Source: a virus
Lineage: Duplodnaviria; Caudoviricetes
Direction: 5' to 3' (one strand)
IMG/VR virus record: IMGVR_UViG_3300012982_000003
Coordinates: 1 to 40,627 of that record
DNA: 40,627 nt
In this document: positions 1 through 35,000 of the stretch, one piece after another
Position numbering within the stretch: position 1 is the first letter of the stretch
Layout: the number at the start of each line of letters is the position of its first letter
The notes under the pieces: generated by a model
The model's database searches: none
Told to the model about the DNA's origin: nothing
The model's input: the letters and a program-made list of their open reading frames with translations, nothing else
Translations under genes and position numbers: made by a program

Positions 1-66
1 GAGCCAAGTGGGGAGCCAAGTGCGGAGCCAAGTGGGGAGCCAAGTGGGGAGCCAAGTGCGGAGCCA
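1..66 (+). repeat. 12-bp coding tandem repeat GAGCCAAGTG(G/C)G, five copies plus a partial, encoding SQV(G/R)
   Basis: Read directly at 1-60 plus GAGCCA; truncated by the window edge. Confidence 0.95.
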
Positions 67-697
67 GTCTGTTAACAATTATCGCGGCGGCGCATTTTGG
101 GCCTCGTGGTGCGCCTACATCACCTTTCTGCGCGATGTTGCGGCCTGGAATGACTCAGCACTGAGCAAATTCAAAATCGACGAAGATTTATCAACCTCAT
201 GCGGCTGGGTCTGGTGGCACGAAAATGTACTTGCTATCTCTGATCGGCCAGCAGAGTTGCGCCGAGACGATCAAGGCCGGCTTCATGCAGAGCATGGGCC
301 ATCCATCGCGTATCGAGACGGATGGAGCCTATATCACTGGCATGGTGTATCGGTGCCGTCAGAATGGATTACTGAAAAAAATTCGCTCACTGCGGCAACG
401 GCGCTTTCGTGGGAAAACATTGAGCAGCGCCGTGCAGCTTGTGAAATTGTTGGCTGGCATAACGTGCTATCGCAACTGAACGCTCGAACAATCAACAAAA
501 ACAGCAATCCGCAAATAGGGACGCTGCTGGAAGTTGATTTACCGGATAGCGGGAAAGAACGGTTTCTGCAAGTGAAGTGTGGTACTGGCCGGGACTTTTG
601 TATTCCGGTGCCGCGCGAAATGAAGACTGCTGAACAAGCGCAACTGTGGACATACGGCGTCGATGACGCTTCCTATTTACCCGAGGTGAGGACTTAA
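1..697 (+). CDS. DUF6745-domain phage protein, 5' truncated
   Basis: SQV repeat linker followed by CGWVWW...SDRP...DDQGRLH..HGP.I.Y.DGW.LY.WHGV.VP and ENIEQRRAACEI, typical of DUF6745. Confidence 0.8.
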   Translation, partial: SQVGSQVRSQVGSQVGSQVRSQSVNNYRGGAFWASWCAYITFLRDVAAWNDSALSKFKIDEDLSTSCGWVWWHENVLAISDRPAELRRDDQGRLHAEHGPSIAYRDGWSLYHWHGVSVPSEWITEKNSLTAATALSWENIEQRRAACEIVGWHNVLSQLNARTINKNSNPQIGTLLEVDLPDSGKERFLQVKCGTGRDFCIPVPREMKTAEQAQLWTYGVDDASYLPEVRT

Positions 698-699
698 CA

Positions 700-1044
700 A
701 TGGAAATCATAACTTTCAAAAACTGCGCAGCACAGGGCGATATTCTCATTCATCGCATTCAGGCTTTGCCGCTTGGCGCGATAAAGCAATCCGATGACAG
801 CGGCAAGCACATCGTCGCGCACAGCGAGACCGGACACCATCATACCGTCGCTTCCGCTGGCGTTGACTTTTACCATGCTGCAAATGATCCGATGGTGATG
901 TTCTTGGTAGTCGATAACGAAGCCGATTTGATTCATAACAGGGGTTTCGACACGCATAAAACTATACGGTTCGACAAGGGTATCTATGAAATAAGACGTC
1001 AGCGCGAGCATACCCCAGAAGGCTGGCGGCGCGTTGCGGACTAG
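700..1044 (+). CDS. Conserved phage protein usually paired with DUF6745
   Basis: QGD, HSETGHHH, H...H and YEIRRQRE motifs; GAGG RBS. Confidence 0.75.
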   Translation: MEIITFKNCAAQGDILIHRIQALPLGAIKQSDDSGKHIVAHSETGHHHTVASAGVDFYHAANDPMVMFLVVDNEADLIHNRGFDTHKTIRFDKGIYEIRRQREHTPEGWRRVAD

Positions 1045-1054
1045 AGGTGAAGCC

Positions 1055-1309
1055 ATGAGCGCAATCATTGCAAACAGTCTTGAAAGCCTAATCGCACAGT
1101 TGAAGAACGATCCTGTCGAGTTGGCGCAGAACTATATTGCGGACCCGACCATGTTGCTGCAAGAACTGCTCGGATCGATTCATCGCTACGAGCGCATGTG
1201 TTCGGGTGATTCACGCGATGAACGCGAACAGGAAGCACGCTTGACGTTGGATGACATGATTATGTTTCGCGATGAGGCAATAAAAGTCGCGGCTGGGTTG
1301 TCTTTTTAG
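1055..1309 (+). CDS. Hypothetical protein
   Basis: GAGGTG RBS before ATG at 1055. Confidence 0.65.
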   Translation: MSAIIANSLESLIAQLKNDPVELAQNYIADPTMLLQELLGSIHRYERMCSGDSRDEREQEARLTLDDMIMFRDEAIKVAAGLSF

Positions 1310-1321
1310 GAGGGTGAAGCC

Positions 1322-1480
1322 ATGACCAAAACAGACTACAGCACCACGCTTCGCCCTTGGTGGCGTCGTCGTCCGATGGCTACGCAATCACCCCGCGATG
1401 GTGAAAGACTGCTCGCGCGCACCCTTGAAATATTGCTGGCCGTGGTTGCTGCGGCGATTGCGCTGGGGCTGGCGGCATGA
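1322..1480 (+). CDS. 52-aa protein with hydrophobic C-terminus (not in ORF track)
   Basis: AGGAGG RBS; translates MTKTDYSTTLRPWWRRR...LLAVVAAAIALGLAA; ATGA overlap with next ORF. Confidence 0.6.
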   Translation: MTKTDYSTTLRPWWRRRPMATQSPRDGERLLARTLEILLAVVAAAIALGLAA

Positions 1481-1545
1481 CCATGGAACTCGTAGTCCTT
1501 GTGGCAATCATCGTGATAGTTATTTTTTTGAGGTATATGAAATGA
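1477..1545 (+). CDS. 22-aa single-TM peptide MTMELVVLVAIIVIVIFLRYMK
   Basis: ATGA overlaps at both ends; hydrophobic core with basic tail. Confidence 0.5.
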   Translation: MTMELVVLVAIIVIVIFLRYMK

Positions 1546-1793
1546 CATCATTGGCCGACATCCCGAAAGACATTTTCGATGCGCTGGTCGAGTATATGGT
1601 CAAACGTCATCCCGTAGGCGATTTTTTGTATGCCGCGCTGAGTAACGATTTTATGGGTGCAATCTGTCGCGCCGATGATCAAAATATACATGCTCTGCAT
1701 GCAATCGCGATCTATATCTACAACGAAATCCCATCAGCGGCTTGGGGATCGAAAGCGAAAGTTGATGCGTGGCTTGCTGGATACGCGCCATGA
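1542..1793 (+). CDS. Conserved hypothetical phage protein
   Basis: GAGG RBS; PVGDFLYAALSNDFMGAICRAD...IYNEIPSAAWGS motif seen in phage early regions. Confidence 0.7.
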   Translation: MTSLADIPKDIFDALVEYMVKRHPVGDFLYAALSNDFMGAICRADDQNIHALHAIAIYIYNEIPSAAWGSKAKVDAWLAGYAP

Positions 1794-1995
1794 CTGATCT
1801 GCAAGCCATACTGCACAGATTCCGCAATCCGTCGCCACGCGATGATCACGAGGCGCGTAAGGCACGCTTGCTACGTCTATCCGACCGTTCCCCGGATGCT
1901 CTTGACAAGATTTTGCAGTCGAGCGGCGCGGGAATATTCGCCGCTGGCAGGATGCGGAGAATGCTTATTTTGATAAATTGGAGAAAGAGACATGA
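1790..1995 (+). pseudogene. Small early gene frameshifted by a 35-bp insertion
   Basis: Removing 1874-1908 gives MTDLQ...KARLLDFAVERRGNIRRWQDAENAYFDKLEKET*, with ATGA overlaps to both neighbours. Confidence 0.6.
1874..1908 (+). repeat. 35-bp exact dispersed repeat, copy 1 (copy 2 at 16197-16231)
   Basis: CGTCTATCCGACCGTTCCCCGGATGCTCTTGACAA read at both positions. Confidence 0.95.
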
Positions 1996-2846
1996 GCGCA
2001 GCATTACAAACAGCAGAAGCAGGAACGAGTCTGGTTGCTCGGTTCGCGTCGCGCTACGGCGTCGAGCCTAACAAGCTGATGACGACGCTAAAGGCCACGG
2101 CGTTCAAGGTTAAAGACGGCGAGGCCACGAATGAGCAGATGATGGCACTGCTTATTGTCGCAGACCAGTACGGCCTAAATCCATTCACGAAAGAGATTTA
2201 CGCATTCCCCGACAAGAAGAACGGCATCGTCCCCGTTGTTGGCGTGGATGGCTGGAGTCGCATCATCAACGAGAATCCGGCTTTTGATGGCATGGATTTT
2301 AATGAATCGCAAGAAACCGCAACGCCAGACGGCGGCAAGGAATGCCCGAGGTGGATTGAGTGCGTAATCCACCGCAAGGACAGGTCGCATCCGATCCGCA
2401 CGAAGGAATATCTGGACGAAGTATACCGGCCAGCTTTTCGCGGCCAGAACGGTCCTGTCGTCGGTCCTTGGCAAACTCATACGAAGCGGTTCCTGCGGCA
2501 CAAGTCAATGATTCAATGCGCGCGCATCGCGTTCGGGTTCGCCGGCATATTCGACCAGGACGAAGCAGAGCGGATCATTGAAGGCGAGACATTCCGCGAA
2601 GAATCGACGCGCCCTGATATCGAAGTCGCCAAGGAACAATTTGCGGATGCTATCACAGCCATCAAGGACGGTATTAAGGAAGGCAATCTGGTGGCGGCAT
2701 CGAAAGTGTGGAACGAATTATCGAACGATACGCAAATGCGCCTATGGGTTGCGCCAACAAAAGGAGGCCCATTCAGCGCCGAGGAACGTGAAGTAATTCA
2801 TTCATCGCAGTTCGCACAGGCTTACTTTGGAGGCAAAGACCAATGA
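1992..2846 (+). CDS. bet: Phage single-strand annealing recombinase, Red-beta (Bet) family
   Basis: LIVADQYGLNPFTKEIYAFPDK..GIVPVVGVDGWSRIIN and WQTHTKRFLRHKSMIQCARIAFGFAGIFDQDEAERI. Confidence 0.95.
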   Translation: MSAALQTAEAGTSLVARFASRYGVEPNKLMTTLKATAFKVKDGEATNEQMMALLIVADQYGLNPFTKEIYAFPDKKNGIVPVVGVDGWSRIINENPAFDGMDFNESQETATPDGGKECPRWIECVIHRKDRSHPIRTKEYLDEVYRPAFRGQNGPVVGPWQTHTKRFLRHKSMIQCARIAFGFAGIFDQDEAERIIEGETFREESTRPDIEVAKEQFADAITAIKDGIKEGNLVAASKVWNELSNDTQMRLWVAPTKGGPFSAEEREVIHSSQFAQAYFGGKDQ

Positions 2847-3889
2847 GCGCGCAATTACAAGAGCAGTCCGGCATCCCGCTTATCAAGTACAGCGTTACCG
2901 ACGCGAAGCTCGCCGAGTTGCGCGAGAAGTACAAGCACGTACCGAACGCGGAAACCGAAGTTGGTTACAGCCTCATCAAGGCCGCTCTGTCTGAACTGGT
3001 GCCGCTGCGTACTGGCGTGGACAAGAAGCGCAAAGAACTCAAGGCCGATTCACTGGAATGGGGCCGCAAGGTCGATGCAGAAGCGAAGCGCATAACTGAG
3101 GCGTTGGAAGCTATCGAACGGCCGTTGCGAGAAGCCAAAGACTGGGTAGATGCCGAAGCCGAGCGCCGCAAACAGGAACAAATTCAGGCGGCAGCAAAAG
3201 CACTGGCGGCAGTTGAAGCGCGCATTTCCCGCATTCTGGGATTTGCCGAGTATCTGATCGGCGCGACGGCTGCGAACCTGCGCGAATCGCTGTTGAAACT
3301 CGACGCCATACCGATTGACGACAGTTTTGAGCCGCTGAAAAGCAAAGCCACCGCGGTACATGCCGAAGTCCGAAAGAAGATCGAATCGGCCCTTGCGGAA
3401 CGGGTACTGTTTGAAGAACAGCAGGCCATCCAAGCCAAGCAGGCCGCTGAACTCAAGGCCCAACAGGATGCGCTCGCCGCAGAGCAAGCCGCGCTGACGG
3501 CTGCGCAGGAAGCCCACAACGCCGCGATGCGCGCCGAGCAGGACAAGGCTGCGGCAGAGCAACAACGCATTGAGCGCGAGGCCGCTGCAAAGCGCGACGC
3601 TGAACTTGCAGCAGAACGTGCGGAAGCGGCAAGAATCAAGGCTGAGAACGACAGGCTCCAGCGCGAAGCATCTACGGCAAAAGCGGAAAAGGAACGAGCC
3701 GAAGCGGCCGAGCGCAAGCGCCTTAAAGACGAAGCGCGCCGCCCCGATACTGAAAAGCTGATCGCGTTTGCCGACGAATTGCTGGCCTTGAAAGGGCCAA
3801 GTGTAAAAGATCAATCCTGCAAAGAGCTTTTATATATTGCTCTTCATCAGATCCATGAAGCGGCGAACAAACTGAAAGAGGCCGCATAA
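2843..3889 (+). CDS. Coiled-coil phage protein (DUF1351-like N-terminus)
   Basis: LRTGVDKKRKELK...GRKVDAEAKRITE.L..IE.PL followed by an Ala/Glu/Gln-rich helix; coupled to bet. Confidence 0.7.
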   Translation: MSAQLQEQSGIPLIKYSVTDAKLAELREKYKHVPNAETEVGYSLIKAALSELVPLRTGVDKKRKELKADSLEWGRKVDAEAKRITEALEAIERPLREAKDWVDAEAERRKQEQIQAAAKALAAVEARISRILGFAEYLIGATAANLRESLLKLDAIPIDDSFEPLKSKATAVHAEVRKKIESALAERVLFEEQQAIQAKQAAELKAQQDALAAEQAALTAAQEAHNAAMRAEQDKAAAEQQRIEREAAAKRDAELAAERAEAARIKAENDRLQREASTAKAEKERAEAAERKRLKDEARRPDTEKLIAFADELLALKGPSVKDQSCKELLYIALHQIHEAANKLKEAA

Positions 3890-4000
3890 TGAGCGACATT
3901 GAATTTGTAAATGGTCTGCTGGTAAAGGCTCCGCACGCCAAGGCACCGGATTACGTCCGAGTGGATCAACGTAGTGATTAAGGTTTCCGGCAAGACTGGT
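3889..4000 (+). pseudogene. Internally deleted remnant of a small conserved phage protein (possibly SSB-like)
   Basis: MSDIEFVNGLLVKAPHAKAPDYV in one frame, EWINVVIKVSGKTG in the next frame; TAATG overlap. Confidence 0.55.
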
Positions 4001-4519
4001 ATGAACGAAATTCCAAGAGAGATATTAGCGAAGCTGGCATCAAATCAAGACATCAATGCCGGGTACATCACCAAGCTTGTCAATGCCGGGTACATCACCG
4101 ATCTGGCCAATGCCGGGTACATCACCGAGCTGGCCAATGCCGGGTACATCACCAAGCTGGCCAATGCCGGGTACTTCACCAAGCTGGTCGATGTGCCAGT
4201 TATCGACAAGCCATACACTCGCATTGTATCTGACATAAAAGAAGGTCGGCGAATTCACAGGCAGTCAACGTTCGGGCCGGATAGAGATCCTTCGACCAAT
4301 CTATGTAAGACGCCGATGTGCACCGCTGGACACATAGTCAATCTAGCCGGTCCAGAAGGGTATGCGCTCAAGGAAAAATACGGGTGGAGTGCGGCCGCTG
4401 CAATCTTATTTGAGAAAGCACACCCCGGCTGGCCTCAGCAAAACTATGGGAACATCCCACAAGAATGGGCGATGGCGTTTTTGGAGACGATGGCTGAGCG
4501 CGAGGCGAGCGAGCCATGA
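4001..4519 (+). CDS. Repeat-containing protein (NAGYITxLA x5) with C-terminal CxTxxCxAG domain
   Basis: ORF track; C-terminal LCKTPMCTAGHIV.LAG..G..L motif resembles the domain following pentapeptide repeats in phage proteins. Confidence 0.7.
   Translation: MNEIPREILAKLASNQDINAGYITKLVNAGYITDLANAGYITELANAGYITKLANAGYFTKLVDVPVIDKPYTRIVSDIKEGRRIHRQSTFGPDRDPSTNLCKTPMCTAGHIVNLAGPEGYALKEKYGWSAAAAILFEKAHPGWPQQNYGNIPQEWAMAFLETMAEREASEP
4054..4188 (+). repeat. 27-bp coding tandem repeat, five copies
   Basis: CAATGCCGGGTAC(A/T)TCACC.... units start at 4054, 4081, 4108, 4135, 4162. Confidence 0.95.
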
Positions 4520-4535
4520 ACGACGAGGAACTGAC

Positions 4536-4967
4536 ATGAGCAAACAACTGATAGCCGCAATCGATCACTGGCTGGCCTGTACTGAAATGACCGGCAACGT
4601 TGGGACTGCCGAAGAACTATTGATGCACGCCCGAAAAGAACTCGTGAAGGGATTCGAGTTCAAGGACGAGTTCAAGGATGTTAGCGGTGCCACGGCTGAA
4701 GGCTTTTACATCAAAGATGATGAAGCGAAGGCCGATGTTGGCAAACAGATAGAAGAGCAGTGGCGCGGGGCGAAAGAGGCAATAGAGGCAATAGCTAGCA
4801 TTGGTCAGGACGATACCCTGCTTGCTAAGCTGCTGGCAGAGCGTGACGCCCTCGCGATCAAGTTGCAGGAGGTTAAGGAGTGGACAGAAAATCCTTGTAT
4901 CAGTGATGCGCTGTGGTCCGAAGGATATATTCAGGCGCGCGAAATCGTGAAGGAGATTTTGAAATGA
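4536..4967 (+). CDS. Hypothetical protein
   Basis: GAGGA RBS before ATG 4536; ATGA overlap with next gene. Confidence 0.65.
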   Translation: MSKQLIAAIDHWLACTEMTGNVGTAEELLMHARKELVKGFEFKDEFKDVSGATAEGFYIKDDEAKADVGKQIEEQWRGAKEAIEAIASIGQDDTLLAKLLAERDALAIKLQEVKEWTENPCISDALWSEGYIQAREIVKEILK

Positions 4968-5149
4968 CTGACACCGGCGACCGCCCGACCTACCAAGTGC
5001 TTGCCCTGCAAATGCAGATCGTCCGCGCGTGGATTTCTGCAATGAAGGGCGTTGCGATTGTGGATGAGATTGACAGGGCATCTTACGAGGCGGCGTGCCA
5101 ATTGGAAAGGCTGATCGATGTGGGGAAGGACGGCGAGAAACTGACATGA
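4964..5149 (+). CDS. Hypothetical protein
   Basis: AAGGAG RBS, ATGA overlap. Confidence 0.6.
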   Translation: MTDTGDRPTYQVLALQMQIVRAWISAMKGVAIVDEIDRASYEAACQLERLIDVGKDGEKLT

Positions 5150-5198
5150 CTGCGCCCGGAGCATTCCCGCTCCGCGATGAACAGATTGGAGGAATGAT

Positions 5199-5483
5199 AT
5201 GAAAATCAGAGAGGAAATTTTTCGCAGCGTCACGAGAAATGTCCCAGAGGGAGTGATTCCTCCGCGCTGGGCGCTGATTATACGCGCCGTGTTATTCCCG
5301 CTTGATGCATTCTATTGGCACATGAATAAATCGCGCGGGTACAGGTGGGATAACGACACATGGAGTATTTACGGCGTCACCTATTCTGGCAAAGGTCTCA
5401 AGCTGCTGGCTCAAGCGACCGGGGAAACGTACCGCATAACCAGAACAGGGGAAACTTTAACATTTGAGCGTGTGTCTGGTTAA
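5199..5483 (+). CDS. Hypothetical protein
   Basis: GGAGG RBS; ORF track. Confidence 0.65.
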   Translation: MKIREEIFRSVTRNVPEGVIPPRWALIIRAVLFPLDAFYWHMNKSRGYRWDNDTWSIYGVTYSGKGLKLLAQATGETYRITRTGETLTFERVSG

Positions 5484-5504
5484 TGATCCTCACTCGTTGG
5501 CGCT

Positions 5505-5708
5505 ATGAACCCTAACTTACTAAGCCAAGACGACCTGCGCGAGTACACGGGCATCGTGCACAAGAGCCTGCTGGTCGAGTGGCTGAAAAAGAACCGTGTT
5601 GCTTACTACATGAACGCGAAGGGCGAAATTGTGACGACGCTGGCCGCGCTCAACAAACCGTTGATCGGGTCCGAGACCGAGAATAGAGTGGTGCCGGAGT
5701 TTACTTAG
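5505..5708 (+). CDS. xis: Excisionase-like protein (DUF4224 type)
   Basis: LLSQDDLREYTG......EWL.......NAKG pattern; immediately upstream of integrase. Confidence 0.75.
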   Translation: MNPNLLSQDDLREYTGIVHKSLLVEWLKKNRVAYYMNAKGEIVTTLAALNKPLIGSETENRVVPEFT

Positions 5709-5717
5709 GAGAACATC

Positions 5718-6689
5718 ATGGCCCGCAAAAGAAATCCTGAAAACGATTGGCTACCACCGCGTGTATCACCGGGACGATCCGCTTACGAGTACCGATTCCG
5801 TGGCAAGATCACGCCGATATGCCCCTTGGACTCGCCGAGGTCCGAGGTCTGGCGCGCCTACGAGTCCTTCATGACCGGCACGCAGGAACGGCGCACCCTA
5901 CGCTGGCTGTCAGACAAGTTTTTGGGGTCAGAACGATTCCTGGCGCTGGCTGCGAAGACACGCCGAGAGTACGAGCGCCAGAGCAAAAAGATCATGGACT
6001 ATCCGCTTAAGTCGGGGAAGTTTGGAGACGTGGACCTTTATGACTTCACGCCGGGCGTGTTCCGCCAGTATCTTGACCGTGCCGACCATAAGCCGATGGC
6101 GAACAGCGATCTTGCCTATATCAGCACAGTATGGTCATGGGGCTACGAGCGCGACATGGCTCCAGCAAACCCCTGTAAGGGCGTCAGACGCCATAAAACG
6201 CCGCCTAGAACGCGCTACGTGACACACGATGAGTTTGCTGCCGTCAAGGCCTCTGCGCCGGCTTACATCCAGGTTGCAATGGAACTGGCTTACCGCTGCC
6301 GGATGCGCTGGGTCGAGGTATTCAGACTGGAATGGGCGGACGTGTCTGACAAGGGCATCCTGCTCAAGCGGGTGAAAGGCTCCAAAACCCAACTGATTTT
6401 GTCCTCGCCTGAACTTGTGGCCGCGCTGGATCAGGCCAAGGCGCTGCCGGGGGCTAAGTCGCTGAAGTACGTCATTCACGACACGGCCGGCCAGCCGTAT
6501 CTCTACGACACGTTTTCAAGTGCGTGGGGCAGGATTGCTACGAAGACCGGAGTTTCGTTCCACTTCCACGACTTGAAAGCTAAGGGAGTGACGGACTTCG
6601 ATGGCAATAAGCTACTGGCATCCGGCCACAAATCGGCATCTATGCTCGCGGTTTATGACCGTGGGATTGATGAGGTTGATGCGACCTAG
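5718..6689 (+). CDS. int: Tyrosine integrase
   Basis: NPCKGVRR, R in RCRMRWVE, KGSK, FHFHDLKAKG, SGH, VYDR catalytic Tyr; AGGAG RBS. Confidence 0.95.
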   Translation: MARKRNPENDWLPPRVSPGRSAYEYRFRGKITPICPLDSPRSEVWRAYESFMTGTQERRTLRWLSDKFLGSERFLALAAKTRREYERQSKKIMDYPLKSGKFGDVDLYDFTPGVFRQYLDRADHKPMANSDLAYISTVWSWGYERDMAPANPCKGVRRHKTPPRTRYVTHDEFAAVKASAPAYIQVAMELAYRCRMRWVEVFRLEWADVSDKGILLKRVKGSKTQLILSSPELVAALDQAKALPGAKSLKYVIHDTAGQPYLYDTFSSAWGRIATKTGVSFHFHDLKAKGVTDFDGNKLLASGHKSASMLAVYDRGIDEVDAT

Positions 6690-6699
6690 GGGTATTTAA

Positions 6700-7131
6700 A
6701 TGCCAAAGCCGAGAAACCCTGAAAACCTTCATCTTCCCAAAAACGTCTATAGGGGCAGGAGTGGTTATCATCTAATAAAGCCATATCTGCGACTTTGCGG
6801 CCCCGATGCGACAATAGAAGAAATCAAGGCGTCTCTGCAATTGATCGATGACGGAACAGGATTTCCCACGAAGAATCAGATACTGCATATATCAAAGCCA
6901 GTTTCTTTGTGTGGCATATATTTTTTAATAAAAAACAAAGAGATTGTATATGTTGGTAAAAGCACAAACATAAGATCACGAATAGTGAACCACTATTTTT
7001 CTAAAAAAGATTTTGACAGGATATCTGTAATTGAACTGGATAAGAGCCGACTCGATTCTTATGAAAAACACTATATAAAATCTTTAAGGCCGAAATTTAA
7101 TACCCTCGGCGTGACCATATGTGAAAGATAG
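6700..7131 (+). CDS. GIY-YIG nuclease fused to an integrase-like N-terminal DNA-binding domain
   Basis: GIYFLIKNKEIVYVGKSTNIRSRI.NH...E..YI..L.PKFN; N-terminus aligns with Int residues 1-45. Confidence 0.85.
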   Translation: MPKPRNPENLHLPKNVYRGRSGYHLIKPYLRLCGPDATIEEIKASLQLIDDGTGFPTKNQILHISKPVSLCGIYFLIKNKEIVYVGKSTNIRSRIVNHYFSKKDFDRISVIELDKSRLDSYEKHYIKSLRPKFNTLGVTICER

Positions 7132-7172: not shown

Positions 7173-7310
7173 ATTAAACAAGTTACTGAGAGTAAAGGAG
7201 AAAAATGGTGCCGGAGAGAGGAGTCGAACCTCCGACCTACTGATTACGAATGAAATCTGAAACAGATATATATTAATCGGTTGCGACCGTTCATTGAAAT
7301 GAAAAGATTG
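7173..7310. promoter_or_regulatory. AT-rich attP arms with three imperfect IHF-like sites (7173-7185, 7271-7283, 7298-7310)
   Basis: ATTAAACAAGTTA, TATTAATCGGTTG and AATGAAAAGATTG compared with WATCAANNNNTTR. Confidence 0.45.
7206..7251 (-). other. attP core: 46-bp 3' half of tRNA-Thr(CGT)
   Basis: Reverse complement ATTCGTAATCAGTAGGTCGGAGGTTCGACTCCTCTCTCCGGCACCA has CGT anticodon loop, T-arm and CCA; 5' half absent; phage genes on both sides. Confidence 0.92.
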
Positions 7311-7731: not shown

Positions 7732-7908
7732 ATGATAAATCAAATACCAGATTTTAAGACATGCGATCATTCATGGATATTAGTGCCTGAGTCCATATTT
7801 GCGTCAGAGTCAATTGACGTGGTGGCATGTGATAAATGCAAGTGTCAGGGGCAACGAATAGAACTGTTAGACTCTGAAATAGTCGGCATATTCTGGGAAG
7901 GCAGATGA
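7732..7908 (+). CDS. 58-aa Cys/His protein (CDHSW...CDKC), possible Zn ribbon
   Basis: Translated by hand; ATGA overlap with the glycosyltransferase. Confidence 0.5.
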   Translation: MINQIPDFKTCDHSWILVPESIFASESIDVVACDKCKCQGQRIELLDSEIVGIFWEGR

Positions 7909-8744
7909 AGGATATGCGAATGCCTTTAATCAGCATCATCATGGCTACTTACAATCGCGAGGGTACTTTGAAACGCGCGATTGACAGCGTTCTTGTCCAA
8001 GGCTACCACGATTTAGAATTGATCATTGTCGATGACGGCTCAACGGATAACACGCATGCCCTGCTCGGGCAATACAAAGACCCGCGCATTCGCATTTACT
8101 CACACCATCCAAACCGTGGGGTAACAGCCGCCAAAAATCGCGGACTAGACGCCATCAATGGCGACTGGTTTACCTTTCTGGACAGCGATGACGAAATGCT
8201 CCCCGAGGCATTGGCGACGTTCGAGGCCGTCATCAAATCAAATTCAAAAATCGACGCGATCACCTGCAACTGTATTGACTCGGTCACCGGCCATTTTTCT
8301 GGGCGAGGATTCGACAGCGATCAATATCTCGACGAGCAACAGGCGTTGAACGCTAAAGGCGAGCACTGGGGACTGACAAAGACTACCTTGTTGGGAACTG
8401 ATCGGTTTAACGAGGAACTGCCGGGCATGGAAGCAACGCTTTGGTCCAAGATCAATAGCCGCGCCACGCGATATTACATTCACAAGGCACTCAGGATTTA
8501 CCACACAGAGGGCGACGACAGGATCTCCACGGCCAACAGATCACGGGGAAATAGCTATCGCACATTTAGGGCGCTGGTCAATGAGACTCATTATTTGAGG
8601 TCGCTCGCGCAATCCAATTCCACGGCGTTTGCTAAAACCTGCATCAAGGGGGTGCTGATCGGAATACGCAATCTCGACCTTTCAACGGCTTGGCGTTATG
8701 CTGCTAAATTGGTGTGGATTTTGCCTAATAGGTGGGAGCGATGA
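7905..8744 (+). CDS. Family 2 glycosyltransferase (probable lysogenic conversion)
   Basis: ISIIMATYNR, IIVDDGSTDNT, NRGVTAAKNRG, FLDSDD; alternative start at 7920. Confidence 0.93.
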   Translation: MKDMRMPLISIIMATYNREGTLKRAIDSVLVQGYHDLELIIVDDGSTDNTHALLGQYKDPRIRIYSHHPNRGVTAAKNRGLDAINGDWFTFLDSDDEMLPEALATFEAVIKSNSKIDAITCNCIDSVTGHFSGRGFDSDQYLDEQQALNAKGEHWGLTKTTLLGTDRFNEELPGMEATLWSKINSRATRYYIHKALRIYHTEGDDRISTANRSRGNSYRTFRALVNETHYLRSLAQSNSTAFAKTCIKGVLIGIRNLDLSTAWRYAAKLVWILPNRWER

Positions 8745-12295: not shown

Positions 12296-12478
12296 TTAAT
12301 GCTCCAACATTTTCCGGTAGTGAAATAACACGCGCACGTACAAGTCTACGGAGATATCTTTCCGTATCAGAATCGTGTCGGTGTGTTCGATATGGCCGAG
12401 CACGTCTTCTCCGGCCCGGTCGATCATTTGTTTCTGTGTCAGATGGATAACCTTTACTTCGGTATCCAGAAAGCTCAT
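12296..12478 (-). CDS. 60-aa paralogue of the 10923-11240 protein with degenerate HExxH
   Basis: T.KQMI...GED..G.....IRKD.....V..H alignment; ATGA overlap with ligase. Confidence 0.6.
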   Translation of the reverse strand: MSFLDTEVKVIHLTQKQMIDRAGEDVLGHIEHTDTILIRKDISVDLYVRVLFHYRKMLEH

Positions 12479-13788
12479 GTTTTGTACTGCGTCGACTTTG
12501 AGTATCCCATCGCATGAAGCGCCGGGAGTTGCTTGATAAGACGATTACCTATGTCGGTCCGGTACATCGGGGAATTAGGAATCTCTATTTTTTTGACGTT
12601 CTTGTAGGCCATGCGCTTAGCCTCATTCACGGTATCGCCGACGCCGGTTATAACGGCAACGTAGTCGCCGGCAGTCACGGGCATTTGAACGTCTTTTATT
12701 TTGCCGTCAACCTCGTCTGGAGCAGTACCCAGCTTGACCTCGCAAGGATGGAAGAAATACTCAATATCCTTGGACCCATAAATTGGGACGCCGGATACTT
12801 CTTTATTGGTCATCTTTGAGTAAGGATAATCCGGGATCGACATGACCACGCCTACAGCGATATCTTCAGCAGGTGTAAACGTGTCTTTGCCGTCGAGGAG
12901 ATCAGGCATCCAGTCAACGATATCTTCGTGCAAAACCTGCATGATGTTGGACAGCGGCCAGCCAAGTCGGCATGTCCACTCCAAAGGACACGGCGTACCG
13001 TCCTCGCCAATGATGCAGTTGATATCCACATAGCCGGTATGACCTGTTTCGTGTAACACCTGCTCTAATGGCTTTAGAACGATGTCGGCGAGCTTTGACT
13101 TATTGACGTACTGAACGACGGTGCCCTGCTCCCCAGTGGCAACGCCAAGATCGTCATTCATCAATTTCTTGAATTCGTAATTCTCGCAATACCACTTCGA
13201 GAATCCACCGGGGCCAAACCAGCCACCAACAGCCATTTCAATGCCGGGAACGAACTCTTGCAGGATGAACGGGGATTTTAATTTCTGCTGCTTCTTCCAG
13301 CGTTGGAGCATGTAGATCATGTCTTTCGGAGACTTGGAGCAATACGACAAGGCTTTGTCGGCATCGCCTGATGGCTTGGACACGAACCGCTTTCTGGTCT
13401 TATCGACGTACTGTATGGCTTTGTCGTAATCGCTGAACGTCTTGGATTGGATAATCTCAAGACCGCACCGCTTCAACGCCTGCTGGCCTTTCTCACGGTC
13501 AAGTTCAAGCTCGGCAGACGCCAGCGTCGCACCTAATATCGGATAACCGTATTGACGGTAGGTCTCCAACTGGTGCAGGTACTTCGTGTTATCCGTGAGC
13601 AGAACAAGGTCGGCCCAGCGCATCCACTTGGTCCAGTCTTTAACCTTCTCTATCATGCCGTCGCCGACCGTGTTGACGGTCTGGTTCTTCTCGTTGGCCA
13701 TGAACACCTTCACGGCATGGCCTTTCTTGATACAACGCAGTGCGAAGTCCAAGGACGCGGAACCCACGTCGATTATCAGGATGTTGAT
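12475..13788 (-). CDS. PurD (GARS)-like ATP-grasp ligase
   Basis: ELELDR, FVSKPSG, FILQEFVPGIE, TGEQG, LEWTCRLGWP, GDTVNEAKRMAY, YRTDIG; start 13788 (ATC) or 13767 (GTG). Confidence 0.88.
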   Translation of the reverse strand: MNILIIDVGSASLDFALRCIKKGHAVKVFMANEKNQTVNTVGDGMIEKVKDWTKWMRWADLVLLTDNTKYLHQLETYRQYGYPILGATLASAELELDREKGQQALKRCGLEIIQSKTFSDYDKAIQYVDKTRKRFVSKPSGDADKALSYCSKSPKDMIYMLQRWKKQQKLKSPFILQEFVPGIEMAVGGWFGPGGFSKWYCENYEFKKLMNDDLGVATGEQGTVVQYVNKSKLADIVLKPLEQVLHETGHTGYVDINCIIGEDGTPCPLEWTCRLGWPLSNIMQVLHEDIVDWMPDLLDGKDTFTPAEDIAVGVVMSIPDYPYSKMTNKEVSGVPIYGSKDIEYFFHPCEVKLGTAPDEVDGKIKDVQMPVTAGDYVAVITGVGDTVNEAKRMAYKNVKKIEIPNSPMYRTDIGNRLIKQLPALHAMGYSKSTQYKT

Positions 13789-15509
13789 GGCGACTTCCTT
13801 GCTTTCATTCGGCGTTTACGGGCGGCGTCACGCTCTGCTTGTTGCTTTAGAGTGATGGAAGATTTAGCGCCAGCAGATGCCGAAGTACCTTTACCAAGCG
13901 AACTATTGACTACGGAAGAAACGGGCTTTGCAATTGAATTGGCACCATAACTGGGGTGAACGAAAAGCTTCTGGTAAGGTTTGGACATGATTAAATGTCT
14001 GGCGGCAGGACGTGCCGCCACGCCAGCCATTGCCAAAGGATTATGAGAAGCCGCTCCCATCAATCCGCCAACGCCATAATCGAAAATAGTGAACGGATTG
14101 GAAGACGTTTCTTTCGGGATTCGGTTAACGTCCTTAAAGACGTTGGCAAATTCACCGATGGTCTTGAATGCGCCGGTCATTGGTTTTTCGGCCTGCACTC
14201 TGGCGGCGAACTTCTGAGGATTAACGCGGCCAGAACCTTCTTGTATGGCATCCTCGACGGTGTGCGCTTTGGCCATCAACGTCCTTGCGTCCCTGAATCC
14301 CTTTAACATGGATGTGCCTTGCTTGCCGGTTGCCGCAAGCTGCCTTTCAATCTTGTCCTCAATGGCCTTTGCGATACCGAGATTGGCTTTACCTAGTGCG
14401 TTATCGCCAGTCTTGAACGCCTTGCTAGCATCGTCCCTTAGAATCTGGACGGCATCAATCGCGTCGGCAGCATCAAAATGCTTAACCCTGAACGAATCGA
14501 CAAGATTGTTAACATCCGACTTCACCGCATCTGGAAATGAATTACTCGCGCCCTTGTACTTGGCTACGATGTCATCCAGACGGGCATTATATTTTGCATC
14601 GGTCGATACAATGCCGGCGCTCTTTACCGGAACGTAGCCGTCCTGATATGCCTTCGCCCTGATCTGCTGCATGGACTCTGACGTGATAGGCGCATCTTTA
14701 GGCAGGCCCATTTCCTTCCTGACTAATCGCTCTGTCACGTCTTGATTCTTTATTTCTGCCAATTGCTGGCTTTTGAACTTTCCAGACACGCCAGATAGTA
14801 GACGGCTGCCAACGCCAGCGCCGGCCATTGGTGGCGTCACCACATAACCTTCTTTCTGTGCTGCTGAGAGCGTGGCATCCCTTACTGAATTTTGTGACTG
14901 TCGAGTAGCCGCTTCTTCGGATTTTCTGGCTACCCTCTGAGACAACCATGAACCGATCTTGTCCCCGGCAAACTTACCCGCAGCACCACCCGCAGCGCCG
15001 GCAGCGATATTAAGCCCGCGAGACTCGCCTTTAGACGTTGGCTGCAAGGCGCCCATCGCGGCACCTACACCCATCGCGCCACGCAATGTTCCAGCGCCGG
15101 GGATAACAGCGCCGGCAGCGACAGAACCAAGAACGTTACCTACCTTTCCGGAGGTTGTCGCCATCAACGGCGCGTCGAGTTTTTTGGATTCGTCTACGCC
15201 TGACTGGACGTTGCTCGGATTGAACATATCCGTCTTATTCAGGACGGGGACGTGGGACAATATCTGCTGTGCGCCACGGCCCATATCGACAACAGACTTA
15301 CCAGCGCCAGCGGCTACCTTGTCGAAGGTAGACATGCTGTCAGTGGGGTCGTATTTATCCGGCTGAGCGAGGTTATGGGCACCCAAAGGCGGAACCGACT
15401 TGAACAGGTCGGGGTGATCTTTACGCAGCGTCGCATCTATTTTGTTATGGTCCCAGTCATCTGGGAAAGCAGCGTAGTTCCCGTCTGGCAGCTTGGCGTA
15501 TTGCGGCAT
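13776..15509 (-). CDS. Ejection/internal virion protein (largest)
   Basis: Ala/Gly-rich; position after tail hub; TAATG overlap gives start 15509. Confidence 0.65.
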   Translation of the reverse strand: MPQYAKLPDGNYAAFPDDWDHNKIDATLRKDHPDLFKSVPPLGAHNLAQPDKYDPTDSMSTFDKVAAGAGKSVVDMGRGAQQILSHVPVLNKTDMFNPSNVQSGVDESKKLDAPLMATTSGKVGNVLGSVAAGAVIPGAGTLRGAMGVGAAMGALQPTSKGESRGLNIAAGAAGGAAGKFAGDKIGSWLSQRVARKSEEAATRQSQNSVRDATLSAAQKEGYVVTPPMAGAGVGSRLLSGVSGKFKSQQLAEIKNQDVTERLVRKEMGLPKDAPITSESMQQIRAKAYQDGYVPVKSAGIVSTDAKYNARLDDIVAKYKGASNSFPDAVKSDVNNLVDSFRVKHFDAADAIDAVQILRDDASKAFKTGDNALGKANLGIAKAIEDKIERQLAATGKQGTSMLKGFRDARTLMAKAHTVEDAIQEGSGRVNPQKFAARVQAEKPMTGAFKTIGEFANVFKDVNRIPKETSSNPFTIFDYGVGGLMGAASHNPLAMAGVAARPAARHLIMSKPYQKLFVHPSYGANSIAKPVSSVVNSSLGKGTSASAGAKSSITLKQQAERDAARKRRMKARKSPSTS

Positions 15510-16810
15510 TACTGGCCTTTCGTGTAGTCGATGATGACGTTGCCGGGAGGTTGTCCATCTGTCGACTGGAACTGACTCGTATCTCCGCCGTTCGCATCTA
15601 CAGCATCCCAAACCGGGTTATTGCTGTTTGGAGCAGGATCATAGAGTGTATGGTTGGCAATTGCCTTGATTCGCCTGATCTGATTAAGCTTGGTTTGCAC
15701 CGTAGTCTTCGCATCGCCCAGTACAGGAACAAGCTTCTTCGCTTCCGCAACCTTTGCGTCGCTGATTTGACCACGACCCATAGATTGTAGAGACGCAATT
15801 GCTATGGCGAAACGATTTGATAGCGTGTCGTACTGCTGGCTTTGTTCTGGCGTGATGGATTTTTTGAAGAATCTTGAAATAGCGCCTTCGTGTTCAGTGT
15901 CCTCAAAGAACGGACTAGCCGTGTCTGTGGCGAGTTTTTCTATCTGTGACAGGCCGTAGTCTATTTCGCCAATGTCTACTTTCACTGACGCGAGCATTGT
16001 TGGATTCATGCGCTGAGCCAGCGGGACATTGGCAGAACCAATCCCCCTATATACTTTTGCGTTAGGATCGTAACGACCGCCTTTAATTGGCTCAAGCTCT
16101 GATCCGTCATCTTTCCATCTAAATCCTGCCGGCGCTTTCTGTCCGTTAGACATGGACTTTAAGGTAGCATCAAGTCGCTTTCCTTCCATGTCGAGTCGTC
16201 TATCCGACCGTTCCCCGGATGCTCTTGACAAAGAAAGCTGCTCGTTGGCCCTGTCATCACGCTTGGCCGCTTCCGCTTCGGCCAATGTCCGGTGCTGTTC
16301 TTCCTCGCTGGCTTTCACCATCGGGGCGTACTGAGTCCATGCGTCTTGCAGAACCTTCTGTATTGCCATCTGAGGAACGCCCTTTTGAGACATCGCCTGA
16401 CCTTCCGTCATTAGGCGCTGTTGAAGCTCGGCGATGGTCTGCGGAAACCCGGTAGGCGATGCCTGTGGCTTCTGAGGACGGGGCGGCAATTGCGGCGGGT
16501 TCATCTGGGAAGATGGCACGCTCGGCAGTGCTTGGTACGGCTGAATCTGCGGCTGCTGCATCGGCATGGAAGACTGGCCGGGACCAGGCGCTTGAGCAGG
16601 AGCGGCGGGCGGCGGCGAGAATCCGCCAATGTCTCCCATGACCTGGCCTGTGTACCCCACATTCTGCATCTCCTGCTGCTGCTGAAGCGTCTTCAACTTC
16701 ATCTGTTCGAGCAATTGCTGGTTATAGGCTCGCTTTACTAATTCATCTTGACCGGCGTAATACCCGGTCATTCCATTATTAATTCCGCTCAGCAAATTGT
16801 TTAGGTTCAT
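15509..16810 (-). CDS. Ejection/internal virion protein
   Basis: Gln/Pro-rich N-half, APAGFRW..DG..LEPI.GG motif common in DNA-transfer proteins. Confidence 0.65.
   Translation of the reverse strand: MNLNNLLSGINNGMTGYYAGQDELVKRAYNQQLLEQMKLKTLQQQQEMQNVGYTGQVMGDIGGFSPPPAAPAQAPGPGQSSMPMQQPQIQPYQALPSVPSSQMNPPQLPPRPQKPQASPTGFPQTIAELQQRLMTEGQAMSQKGVPQMAIQKVLQDAWTQYAPMVKASEEEQHRTLAEAEAAKRDDRANEQLSLSRASGERSDRRLDMEGKRLDATLKSMSNGQKAPAGFRWKDDGSELEPIKGGRYDPNAKVYRGIGSANVPLAQRMNPTMLASVKVDIGEIDYGLSQIEKLATDTASPFFEDTEHEGAISRFFKKSITPEQSQQYDTLSNRFAIAIASLQSMGRGQISDAKVAEAKKLVPVLGDAKTTVQTKLNQIRRIKAIANHTLYDPAPNSNNPVWDAVDANGGDTSQFQSTDGQPPGNVIIDYTKGQ
16197..16231 (+). repeat. 35-bp exact dispersed repeat, copy 2 (in-frame part of the ejection gene)
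   Basis: Identical to 1874-1908; encodes LSRASGERSDR on -. Confidence 0.95.
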
Positions 16811-25893: not shown

Positions 25894-27328
25894 TCCGATA
25901 TTTCACGCCGTTTCTGAAATCGTAATTCAATATGTTTTCCTCGGAAGGCTTGGTAATCGCATGACGTAATGACAAACACGCATACCGTGTTGCAGACATC
26001 AAATCTTCATCCACATCGACTATCAGGCCGTTCTTGCGGTGATAGGATTTAAATTCATCGAACCATTCCGTCAGATTGGCAAAGACCTTGAATCTCCCGG
26101 TGTTCATGCGCGTGAACATCTCGAATATGCCGGGTTCGACTTTATTTCCGCCCTGCCCATCTTTCTGTCCGTCAGCGGGCGGATTAGAAAACTTGTCACG
26201 CCTGAGATTCGCGCCGAGTTCACGGTACTGGTGAGCCAGTGACTGACCAGAACCTTTCTCTGTATTCAGACCGTCATGCGGCCAGACGACAGGTATCCAC
26301 TCGCCGCGCGCATTGATGGCCGCAACGTGCATGGGCGGCAGCGTGTGACGTTCCCGGATAGCGTCATACACATAGGCGGTGTCGTTATCACGGTCCCATG
26401 CTATCCAGACACAGGCGAACGGATGGTCCCAGCCAAAATCTATCGCACATATGCGAGGCCAGTGCTTCGGTATATCGAAGGGCTGGACCTTTATATTTTC
26501 TTCTGGAATGGGGAACACGAGTCCTGAACCTATGATCGGGATACCACGTGAGCGCATGTCTCTTTCGAACGGATCAAGCTGCGCGAGTTTTTCCTCCTTG
26601 ATCTCATCCGTCATGTGCGGCGAGTCGTCCCACGAGGCCCGGATAATCGCCTGACCGGGCCTGCGGTGATTCATGAACATATCGACCACTTTGGTCAGTC
26701 CCGCCTCCGGGGTGTAGGTCAGCATCAACAAGCTCTTGTTTGAGACTGCTGCGCGCTGGTACTGCGACCAGATATCGGAAGGCGGTTCTTCGTCGCACCA
26801 GCCAAGGTGTATACGAGTACCCATGTGCTTCTTTGCGCCCTGCTCATAGGCGCGGAACATGACCTTCGACCAGCGGCCATTGACGTTCCTAACCATCACG
26901 GTGTCATAGGCGTTGATGATTCCTGACTTGCGATGACATTTGCCGATGCACTCAAGCGGGATAGTGCCAGTGCCTAATTGAGCGTCATCGGCCGGGTCTC
27001 CGCAGAGAATCAGTTGCAGAATGTCCCGGACAGTATCGTGAGTGAGGCCACCGACCATCGCGGTGATGTTGGTTCTGAACCTGACACCCTCCCACCAGTC
27101 CGGGTAACGTCCGGTGAGGTGAATAGCCGTTTCAAATCCACCCGCCCATGTCTTTCCGATGCCGTTACCGGCCTGCAATGCTTTCTGTGTAGCCGGAAGG
27201 CCTTTGTCACAACGGGCGTTGTGAAAATATTTCTGGAATGAATAAGGTTCGTAATGCTTAAGTCGGTTCGTTCTTTTTTTTATATCGAGCCTTTGATAAA
27301 GATCAAAAAGCTCCTTAATTTCATCCAC
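25868..27328 (-). CDS. terL: Terminase large subunit, P22-like
   Basis: Walker A AGNGIGKT, HLTGRYPDWWEG, Walker B WCDEEP, DFGWDHP, WPHDG, DLMSATRY. Confidence 0.95.
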   Translation of the reverse strand: MDEIKELFDLYQRLDIKKRTNRLKHYEPYSFQKYFHNARCDKGLPATQKALQAGNGIGKTWAGGFETAIHLTGRYPDWWEGVRFRTNITAMVGGLTHDTVRDILQLILCGDPADDAQLGTGTIPLECIGKCHRKSGIINAYDTVMVRNVNGRWSKVMFRAYEQGAKKHMGTRIHLGWCDEEPPSDIWSQYQRAAVSNKSLLMLTYTPEAGLTKVVDMFMNHRRPGQAIIRASWDDSPHMTDEIKEEKLAQLDPFERDMRSRGIPIIGSGLVFPIPEENIKVQPFDIPKHWPRICAIDFGWDHPFACVWIAWDRDNDTAYVYDAIRERHTLPPMHVAAINARGEWIPVVWPHDGLNTEKGSGQSLAHQYRELGANLRRDKFSNPPADGQKDGQGGNKVEPGIFEMFTRMNTGRFKVFANLTEWFDEFKSYHRKNGLIVDVDEDLMSATRYACLSLRHAITKPSEENILNYDFRNGVKYRSANPRARH

Positions 27329-28515
27329 TATCTTGCCTGTGACGGTCTCAAACGATATCCAGCAGGACCACGCCGCAATTGCGATCTACGCGCCGGTCCA
27401 TACGATGGTGTCGGCGGTGGGCCGCCCGGTGTCTTCAACAGCACGATCCCGTCATATCCTTGCAATAGCACGTTCGTGATCGGCGAGCCGTTGTTATAGG
27501 GCTGCACACCGGCAATGGCTTGGTAGCCTGATTCAATTGTTGTGGTCACTGGAGTTGACACATTCGAATTACACAGAACGATGCCGTTGGTGTAATTGCG
27601 TCGCCACACGCCAGTCGAACCAATCTGGAAACAGGCACCCAGGGCAGCGCCAAGGTCGACGTTGTATTCCTCATACCACGGCGGGACGACGGCGCCCACA
27701 GCAATATCCGTATAGGCAAAATAGCCGTCGTAAAGCAGCGTGGTCGTCAACGCGAAACGCATCAACTTATAATCTGTGAGCGCGCCCTGCGCTTGTAGAG
27801 CCACAATGCCGCCCGGTTTTACATTGGCAATTCTTGCCGTGTAACCGGTAATGACATTATTCCACCCGGCGTTGATAGCAGACCACGACAGGGATGGTGC
27901 AATAGCCCCCTCATACAGTGCGTGGTCGCAAAGCTGCGGATACACACTCATATCGCACGCTGCGTTGGCGAACAGTTTTATTGACGGGTTGATCGTTCTG
28001 ATCTTCGCCCACTGGTATTTATTCCCGGCCTGATACGTGGCCTGCGGGATGGGTGATGTGCCGTCTCCAGCCAAAGATGAGTCGCGCACATTGTCTAAAA
28101 ACTGAAAATCGAATGGCGTTGTTTGCTTTGCCGGCGCAAAGAATGTGTCGTAGTCACGCTGCGCTAGCCACTCTGCATAAATCTGACTCATGTCCGTCAG
28201 ATAGTTTCCGGGGAAAGACGCGACTTTGCTACCGTTTACAAGAAGCCAATGATTGTTATTGGTTAAATAATTGGTCTTGTCGGCATCGATATTGTATGGA
28301 TTGACCGGAGACTGGCATTCTTCCAGAATCGTGTACTGACCGACCACGCAACTTGGATTGAACGATTTAATCCCTGCGCACACACCCGTCATGTTCGTTT
28401 GGATATTCCAAAGCCCAATCATCACCCCATTGAACATTGCAAGTTGCTGCTGAATCTTTGGATTACCCAAACTTTGTGTGAGGTTTCCACTGCCGGAAAC
28501 CGCAAACAGTTTCAT
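27328..28515 (-). CDS. Putative glycoside hydrolase (GHL15-like TIM barrel)
   Basis: FLDN, MRFAL...LL.DGYF, WYEEY.VDLG, GVWRRNYTNGIVL.N, DGIVL. Confidence 0.7.
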   Translation of the reverse strand: MKLFAVSGSGNLTQSLGNPKIQQQLAMFNGVMIGLWNIQTNMTGVCAGIKSFNPSCVVGQYTILEECQSPVNPYNIDADKTNYLTNNNHWLLVNGSKVASFPGNYLTDMSQIYAEWLAQRDYDTFFAPAKQTTPFDFQFLDNVRDSSLAGDGTSPIPQATYQAGNKYQWAKIRTINPSIKLFANAACDMSVYPQLCDHALYEGAIAPSLSWSAINAGWNNVITGYTARIANVKPGGIVALQAQGALTDYKLMRFALTTTLLYDGYFAYTDIAVGAVVPPWYEEYNVDLGAALGACFQIGSTGVWRRNYTNGIVLCNSNVSTPVTTTIESGYQAIAGVQPYNNGSPITNVLLQGYDGIVLLKTPGGPPPTPSYGPARRSQLRRGPAGYRLRPSQAR

Positions 28516-30191
28516 ATCGACTTATAGACGATGTTGTAGACGGTGTTAATAGCCAATGCCGTATCGCAAATTAAATCGAAACTGTTTGTCCGGTAATCGT
28601 AGTTCTGATGACACGAACCAATAATGCCTTGGGCCGCGGCATTCTGCGCTGAGAAACTGACGATGAACCACTCTTTTGCATTTGCAGTCGTCACCGTTGC
28701 CAGCAGGCCGCCGGCCGTTATTGCCGAACCGCCCGTACTGATCTGAATCTGACCGAATAAACTGTTTGCATTCGTGTAGATAAATCCGGGGCCATAGGCG
28801 ATCACGGCCTGTCCTGTAGGGCCGCCGAGTTGCGCATCCGCGCCGCGTGCGACCGACATGTTTTCTTCGCCGTTCTGGTGACCATCCCACGTTCCCCAGC
28901 CGCGACGGTTATTAATCGTGCCACGTCCATTGCCGATGTAGTGCGTGAGATACGCCGCGTCATCAAAATCTGTCGATAAATTAGACGTACTGGCGTGGAC
29001 TGATGAAGTGGTTGAGCCATGAATCACTAAATGATTCTCAAATCCACCGAGAATCGAAGACATGCCTATTGTTGAGTTATACAAACTCTGCGCGACAATA
29101 CCGGTACCAGAACCGGAAGGGCTGCCTGCCAGTGTGACGCCTAAGAAGTGACAGCTATCGATACCCGTTGCCACACCGTCAAAAGCCGCCATCGTCATAC
29201 AGGGGAAACCGCCTGTCTTAAGTCCATTAGTGACGGTGCCTGATCCGGTTGCAAGGACGTTGGTTAGGCCGTTGATGCGATTCGACAGCGTGATAACGTT
29301 ACCAACAACAGAGGTTACAAAGTACGTCCAGCCTGCGATAAATCCATACTGGGTTGCCGTTGGCACGACCGCATAGCCGACTAGATACTGGGTGCCGTCT
29401 GTGACTGTAATATTCGCGCTGCCGCTGGTATACGTCGCATTCTGTGTGAACGCCGCCTGATAGTAGGCCGATACTTCCAACTTATTGGCTTCAATGCCTT
29501 GCAGGTTGCATCCGGCCAACGCTTCAAATCTCAGGCCGCGATTCTTAAGATAGCGACGATGCACCTGAAACTGTTTGAATACGCTCTTGCCGGGGATGAA
29601 AGTGCCCTGAGCAACACTTGAAACAAACCGCATGCCGCCATCGACGCCGTCTGTCTGATCGGTGCAAAACAGGTTGGACAAATCCAGCCGAGAGAAATTA
29701 TGCAGCTCCAGCGGCATGGTATTTTTCGTGAGCCAGATATTGTGCAGTGACGAGCCAAATAATCCGGGGTTATTCACGCCGCCGACTTTTATTGGGTATC
29801 GGAATCCCTCAATTGCGCAATCTCTCAAGTGGACATTGCTGACTGCGGTATTTGAAAATCCTACGGGCGGAGACCCGAGATCGGTATTGTTTGCCGTGAA
29901 ACAATCGTAGTTTCCCGTGTAATCGCCAAGGAATCGAGTGCCCGATTTAAACACCCGCGAATCATCCAGCGTGTTGCTGTTGCCGCTGTTATTCCATGTC
30001 GGCGGGACGCCGAACATGCGTATGCCGGGCACCCAGTTGATTGGGCCTGAGCAGACATAATCGGCATCATCGAAATAAATATCTCCGCGTCCTATTGTCG
30101 CTATGACGTTGTTGATGGCTATTTGAGCGTTGGCATCTTGCTTTGGTATATAAACTCCCGGAACGATCTGAACAGGTACTTGAGACCCCAT
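28512..30191 (-). CDS. Tailspike-like beta-helix protein B
   Basis: AQIAINNVIA...G.IYF....Y pectate-lyase-type start; paralogue of 30546-32366. Confidence 0.7.
   Translation of the reverse strand: MGSQVPVQIVPGVYIPKQDANAQIAINNVIATIGRGDIYFDDADYVCSGPINWVPGIRMFGVPPTWNNSGNSNTLDDSRVFKSGTRFLGDYTGNYDCFTANNTDLGSPPVGFSNTAVSNVHLRDCAIEGFRYPIKVGGVNNPGLFGSSLHNIWLTKNTMPLELHNFSRLDLSNLFCTDQTDGVDGGMRFVSSVAQGTFIPGKSVFKQFQVHRRYLKNRGLRFEALAGCNLQGIEANKLEVSAYYQAAFTQNATYTSGSANITVTDGTQYLVGYAVVPTATQYGFIAGWTYFVTSVVGNVITLSNRINGLTNVLATGSGTVTNGLKTGGFPCMTMAAFDGVATGIDSCHFLGVTLAGSPSGSGTGIVAQSLYNSTIGMSSILGGFENHLVIHGSTTSSVHASTSNLSTDFDDAAYLTHYIGNGRGTINNRRGWGTWDGHQNGEENMSVARGADAQLGGPTGQAVIAYGPGFIYTNANSLFGQIQISTGGSAITAGGLLATVTTANAKEWFIVSFSAQNAAAQGIIGSCHQNYDYRTNSFDLICDTALAINTVYNIVYKSI
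28894..28940 (+). repeat. 47-bp exact repeat (other copy 30934-30980)
   Basis: CCCCAGCCGCGACGGTTATTAATCGTGCCACGTCCATTGCCGATGTA. Confidence 0.95.
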
Positions 30192-30517: not shown

Positions 30518-30545
30518 TTTCTGATATCTCGCCGATAGAAAATCT

Positions 30546-32749: not shown

Positions 32750-32750
32750 G

Positions 32751-33408: not shown

Positions 33409-33595
33409 TTCAAAATGGCGAAAAATATGGGGGGGATACAGATTCAACTCACAACACCCCGTCCGGTCCCCGGAGTTCGGGCGCACATGCCCGATTAGGC
33501 GCTAGATCGAGTCCAGCCCGGGCTTTGACGTACAGATTGATGGACAAATACAGGCTAAGCTATTGATTATACTTACTTAGACAACTGATAGCTTA

Positions 33596-34999: not shown

Positions 35000-35000
35000 A

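Follow-up and report, generated by a model that had tools for sequence, protein, structure and literature searches.

Here we describe a short duplicated segment in the early operon of an uncultured temperate phage, which lies within a small gene directly upstream of bet and is identical to part of a late gene of the same genome. The window, i.e. the whole stretch of DNA that was analysed, is an entire IMG/VR entry of 40,627 bases, classed as linear and 94% complete. The annotated phage genes encode a Bet-like protein, an excisionase (xis), an integrase (int), a portal protein, a terminase, a major head protein, an endolysin and an O-like replication protein. The plus strand carries the genes from 8 to 7131, and the late operon is located on the minus strand. 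The features that concern the duplication are listed in Table 1.

Table 1. Coordinates of the features of the phage contig.
Feature	Position	Strand	Description
5' half of broken gene	1790..1873	+	28 codons; ATG overlaps the stop of gene 1542-1793 (ATGA)
Inserted exact copy	1874..1908	+	35 nt; self-match with 16197-16231
Orphaned 3' half	1909..1995	+	28 codons; stop overlaps the bet start (ATGA)
Stem-loop right of insert	1922..1945	.	7-bp perfect stem, 10-nt loop, 13 nt past the junction
bet-like ssDNA annealing protein	1992..2846	+	phrog_252, E 2.7e-82
Second broken early gene	3889..4003	+	small conserved gene; about 20 internal codons missing and frame change compared with homologue P0008
attP-like core	7204..7251	-	equals the 3' part of tRNA-Thr(CGT); xis and int lie upstream
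Donor gene	15509..16810	-	433 codons, late operon; plausible ejection (internal virion) protein
Donor segment	16197..16231	-	codons 194-205 of the 433-aa late protein; native (homologue alignment)

The phage and its candidate host

Four genomes of a collection that covers 185,579 species have a tRNA-Thr(CGT) whose 3' part matches the att core exactly over 46-48 nt. These genomes are titled Acidiferrobacterales (one MAG), Gammaproteobacteria (two MAGs) and Proteobacteria (one MAG), and from the tRNA-Thr match alone we infer Acidiferrobacterales as the candidate host order. The att core has phage genes to its left and right, so the contig represents the excised form. Among 103 genomes of the candidate order, neither a Bet match nor a prophage relative was found, with two candidates per genome scored in the prophage scan.

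An exact-sequence look-up found 11 of 20 window proteins, 10 of which belong to one-member clusters confined to their own contig. Among the 11 proteins found, only xis has near-identical relatives, and these include the xis of three ENA contigs. The phage contig itself is a singleton, and no close relative of the insert region was found.

Several other features of the record were noted. The late operon contains a gene for a GARS-like ATP-grasp protein (12475-13767, minus strand; PF02843, PF01071) between the virion genes and the lysis cassette, and a glycosyltransferase gene (7905-8744) is located beside the att core. Small plus-strand ORFs and an HTH gene interrupt the minus-strand late region at 33520-35900. 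In the early operon, five tandem 27-nt units (4052-4220, plus strand) encode 9-residue repeats within the ORF 4001-4519. The contig begins within the 12-nt tandem repeats of a DUF6745 gene (1-66); short tandem repeats are likewise present at the contig ends of G110 and G122. There is no clear cI/cro pair at the contig ends, and it probably lies in the unassembled gap.

A copied segment in a broken small gene

The sequences at 1874-1908 and 16197-16231 are identical at 35 of 35 nt, in direct orientation and 14,323 nt apart, while the number of exact 35-mer pairs expected by chance in the window is 1.2e-12. Their flanks are unrelated: alignments of the 30-nt flanks score 5 and 5, which equals the random median of 5, and junction similarity scores are 3, 3, 4 and 3, compared with a random mean of 3.6. 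A self-versus-self search, which the earlier note on this DNA had proposed for exact matches of 25-40 bp, yielded the 1874/16197 pair as the only non-tandem, non-paralogous exact match longer than 25 nt in the window. A 47-nt exact match (28894/30934) is part of a paralogous repeat (96-105 nt, 82-84% identical; over 105 nt, 28869-28973 and 30909-31013 share 82% identity) in two unannotated late genes, and its exact core possibly reflects a recent gene conversion between paralogues. A diversity-generating retroelement was considered and rejected; the record has no RVT_1 match, and the two 35-nt copies are identical, without adenine-specific TR/VR differences.

The 31 longest of 45 Bet-encoding phage records in IMG/VR (used whole, 1.43 Mb in total) served as controls for exact matches more than 1 kb apart. 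None of the 31 contained an isolated two-copy exact repeat of at least 28 nt; the matches flagged were one 27-mer in G134, which belongs to a larger duplicated module, and three 22-mers elsewhere. The module of G134 (L234-L237; about 27000-33600 and 61200-67900) is a diverged duplication of several kb within a single phage record. Given the tiny chance expectation and the absence of such repeats from the controls, the 35-nt copy is neither a chance match nor a routine occurrence, and the complete identity of the two copies points to a recent event. The value of 35 nt is an upper bound on the length of the insert, as the ancestral junction is not fixed by any homologue, and inserts of 32, 29, 26, 23 or 20 nt would restore the frame equally well, with the remaining matched bases representing microhomology at the target. 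When the flanks are joined without the insert, they read CTAG, a 4-base palindrome at the insertion point that was noted post hoc.

The copy at 16197 is in-frame coding sequence of the minus-strand ORF 16810-15509. The sole homologue found for the encoded protein (P0006) aligns without gaps across residues 167-222, so this copy is native. The protein itself has neither a PHROG nor a Pfam match. Among the named Atlas clusters, PF16928 comes closest to it (0.92; 143 features shared, at a tool threshold of 170), and the gene adjoins another with an internal-virion-protein match. Gene position and the sub-threshold PF16928 lead make an ejection (internal virion) protein plausible.

The copy at 1874 separates two halves of a small gene. 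Its removal joins the ATG at 1790 to the TGA at 1993-1995, which overlaps the bet ATG at 1992; the bet start keeps an upstream GGAG motif, and bet is followed by a coiled-coil gene (within 1992-3889). With the insert, the upstream frame continues to a stop at 2071, inside bet, and there is no upstream start in frame with the orphaned half, whose frame is closed by a stop within the insert (1903-1905). Frame restoration is a weak test, since about 55 placements of any 2-mod-3 deletion that removes the stop at 1903-1905 also restore the frame. Independent support is provided by codon usage, scored with a model trained on 29 genes of the same phage. In the insert-free joined frame, positions 1909-1992 score 9.78, compared with a mean of 7.21 for true coding windows, and only 0.4% of 700 open off-frame windows reach this value; in the frame that is read with the insert, the 3' half scores -3.81. 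The score of the 5' half is intermediate (-1.54), with 5% of true coding windows lower and 10% of off-frames higher. Because the 3' half scores as coding only in the insert-free joined frame, and because this frame ends in the ATGA overlap, the segment was copied from the late gene into the small gene, which it broke.

These results bear out most of what the earlier note had read from the letters: an exact match between loci 14.3 kb apart with unrelated flanks, an in-frame minus-strand donor at 16197 and a recipient at 1874, and a frameshifted small gene that, once the insert is deleted, again ends in an ATGA overlap with bet. Two of its descriptions need to be narrowed. 'Spacer-sized' applies to 35 nt as an upper limit and not as a fixed length, as shorter inserts fit equally well, and 'ejection gene' is a plausible designation by position that has no PHROG or Pfam match behind it and a PF16928 lead below the threshold.

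Relatives of Bet with identities of up to about 70% over most of the protein were found at 45 viral and 59 metagenome loci, and tblastn detected neither half of the small gene at any of them. Further searches for homologues of the small gene gave either nothing or chance-level matches (best E 8), and xis, gene 2843 and gene 1542 as queries led to no close locus. Searches of viral and metagenome contigs with the 35-mer, and of viral contigs with 18 nt of the right flank, gave no match; these searches may omit the phage's own or very near records. An exact look-up of five insert-overlapping ORFs returned no match, which carries no weight because four other plausible genes were missed as well. 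The missing piece of the second broken gene (3889) is absent elsewhere in the window, and its lesion suggests either relaxed selection on the early operon or error-prone assembly.

Possible origins of the copy

A chimeric library molecule, formed for example during amplification, or a low-coverage misassembly would mean that the real phage has an intact gene. The evidence comes from a single metagenomic contig whose identified proteins, with the exception of xis, cluster only with themselves, and the frameshifting lesion in gene 3889 is only 2 kb away. Against an artefact, none of the 31 other phage records carries an isolated exact copy of comparable length, so such a copy is not a routine product of these assemblies; for a k-mer assembler to place it there, both junctions would have to occur in the reads, and in a chimera formed in vitro, two neighbouring bases would have had to be brought back together with a foreign piece between them. 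We consider an artefact unlikely, but a source of error to be reckoned with. A polymerase that switched templates out and back, possibly aided by Bet and with the microhomology hidden inside the 35-nt match, is a quite unlikely source. Shorter inserts with 3-15 nt of hidden microhomology would restore the frame equally, and the phage encodes a Bet-family protein next to the insert, as in the relaxed recombination by Red-beta/Bet proteins of temperate phages that is described in the available part of PMC3945230. According to the same part of that paper, efficient exchange by Red-beta requires 23-27 bp of exact pairing, and no recombinants with a non-homologous locus were detected (<5e-9). In the phage, by contrast, exact pairing of this length occurs nowhere outside the insert; the flank scores are at random level, with no pairing of at least 23 bp at the crossovers, similarity beyond the match is absent at both junctions, and a YqaJ-family exonuclease partner was not found in the 94%-complete record.

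Alternatively, a prespacer made by Cas1-Cas2 might have been captured off-target and resolved from a half-site without target duplication, which we judge improbable. The length of 35 nt is in the spacer range of cas1-adjacent arrays of the candidate host order, in which 18 of 103 genomes encode cas1; of 28 cas1 loci that partly overlap, 16 have an array, and three of these 16 include some 35-nt spacers (3/7 in L134, 2/11 in L136 and 1/11 in L148). The first base of the right flank is G, a 7-bp stem follows within 20 nt (as at 3% of positions), and 16 of 36 positions agree with the L136 repeat, which is in the top 2% of background. This agreement, however, is the best among 16 comparisons made with 8 repeats and thus expected by chance, and the true host repeat may differ; the folding of the stem-loop, matched by 26 of 200 shuffles, is not significant. 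As the earlier note had stated, no CRISPR repeat, target duplication or convincing PAM is evident around 1874-1908. The trinucleotide TTC, which we take to be a PAM motif (an assumption that extends to the CRISPR subtype names), is one base off the donor end instead of adjacent to it, and TTC occurs within 1 nt of either end at 10% of positions. Its location at the end joined to the repeat-like flank is the opposite of the canonical orientation. Moreover, cas1 was found neither in the phage nor in any of the four att-matching genomes, the 35-mer occurs in none of the order's 103 genomes even when up to 3 mismatches are tolerated, and the cas1 loci contain no convincing spacer match for the insert (longest 17 nt, E 0.19). 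Spacer acquisition entails duplication of the repeat, and integration at off-target sites occurs in E. coli (PMC7054753, in the part available, citing Nivala 2018); the in vitro off-target sites of Pyrococcus furiosus Cas1-Cas2 are paired at repeat length, repeat-like and favour G (accessible sections of PMC6698737). The insert resembles such events, as far as these excerpts describe them, in a length that may fall in the spacer range (35 nt at most), the G at the junction and a weak, one-sided repeat-like hairpin. It differs in the absence of a target duplication of repeat length (about 28-37 bp), the non-adjacent PAM, a phage without cas genes and a repeat likeness that is not significant after 16 tests. 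The full scenario, in which the phage's late gene supplied the prespacer, which was then integrated at a repeat-like hairpin of the early operon and resolved without target duplication, is very improbable. More doubtful still is a selected trans-acting antisense element, whose early transcript would pair with the late mRNA and damp the ejection protein via duplex cleavage. The early plus-strand transcript does carry 35 nt of perfect complementarity to the late mRNA, as the earlier note had pointed out, and the predicted duplex has -72.7 kcal/mol; complementarity is given by any direct copy because the early and late operons face opposite ways. A perfect duplex of such length could be an RNase III substrate, as for lambda OOP-cII. 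Lambda OOP and P22 sar are phage antisense RNAs that are likewise complementary to another locus of the same element. Nothing beyond this complementarity speaks for the antisense function that the note had listed as an option. Between 1300 and 2300, there are no promoter-like sites (1.0 expected) and no plus-strand terminator-like site, and 1500-2300 has no Rfam match. The target is located in the middle of the coding sequence, 580-614 nt past the start codon. Accessibility of the insert is low, with a mean unpaired probability of 0.31 that ranks at the 12th percentile among local windows. The insert by itself folds unremarkably, as 36 of 200 shuffled sequences do equally well; no relative was found that shows conservation, the insert breaks a gene, and early and late transcripts would be expected at different times. 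A hybrid promoter from the TTGACA of the insert (1902-1907) was rejected, the -10 box being absent at 16-18 nt, as was a structured RNA at the insert, with folding at shuffle level and no Rfam match. In the complementarity of a short sequence to another locus of the same element, the insert is comparable to the phage CRISPR mini-arrays and repeat-like regulatory RNAs described in the accessible text of bioRxiv 10.1101/2023.03.03.530964, where the mini-arrays have two repeat-like flanks. Unlike mini-arrays and antisense RNAs, it is without flanking repeats, a promoter or a terminator of its own, and its target is mid-CDS. A function of the 35-nt insert is unsupported.

A probable captured fragment of the phage's own DNA

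We consider it somewhat more probable than all other readings combined that the copy is a fragment of self-DNA that was captured once as filler during the end-joining of a break in the small gene and is likely functionless. The clean join, without target duplication or long flanking homology around an ectopic piece, is best accommodated by capture at a break. A double-strand break would have occurred at 1873/1909 in a cell with several copies of the phage genome, and a short degradation fragment of the late gene would have been joined into it by host end-joining, via Ku/LigD or microhomology and using 0 to few bases. The phage would have survived if the 56-codon gene was dispensable, and the second broken early gene (3889) fits relaxed selection on the early operon. 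In the candidate host order, 19 of 103 genomes encode Ku; it was not found in the four att-matching genomes, which are incomplete. End-joining and template switching are indistinguishable from one sequence. Of the ectopic capture that the earlier note had listed as a further option, fragment capture by some repair route is retained, and the two examples given for it are not, Cas1-Cas2 for the missing target duplication and Bet for the missing homology that it requires.

In bacteria, non-homologous end-joining is able to capture DNA into breaks, as documented for Ku/LigD of Sinorhizobium meliloti in the available portion of PMC6379672. The phage insert has in common with that system that a piece was joined without flanking homology or target duplication. 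The capture published there, as far as that portion goes, was a resistance cassette at an I-SceI break and not a 35-nt self fragment, whereas the piece in the phage genome is natural, self-derived and at most 35 nt long, and both its break and its joining enzyme are conjectural.

The insert is best read as neutral or as a loss-of-function change. Its more direct predicted effect would be in cis, namely that the small gene, and with it the translational coupling to bet, is lost. A repair scar is a known kind of event, and as a single case it matters little: a small piece of phage DNA disabled a gene of the phage it came from. If, however, the insert measurably silenced the late gene, it would represent the one-step birth of an antisense regulator. 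A literature search based on titles and the first parts of abstracts, with most subscription journals outside its scope, found no description of duplication-free, spacer-sized self-insertions in phages. If the origin from a prespacer were true, CRISPR adaptation of the host would act as a mutagen, inserting self-copies of spacer size into the genomes of phages and thereby yielding ready-made, perfect antisense sequences; and if self-copies in phages peaked at spacer length with a PAM bias, they would constitute a duplication-free footprint of CRISPR adaptation.
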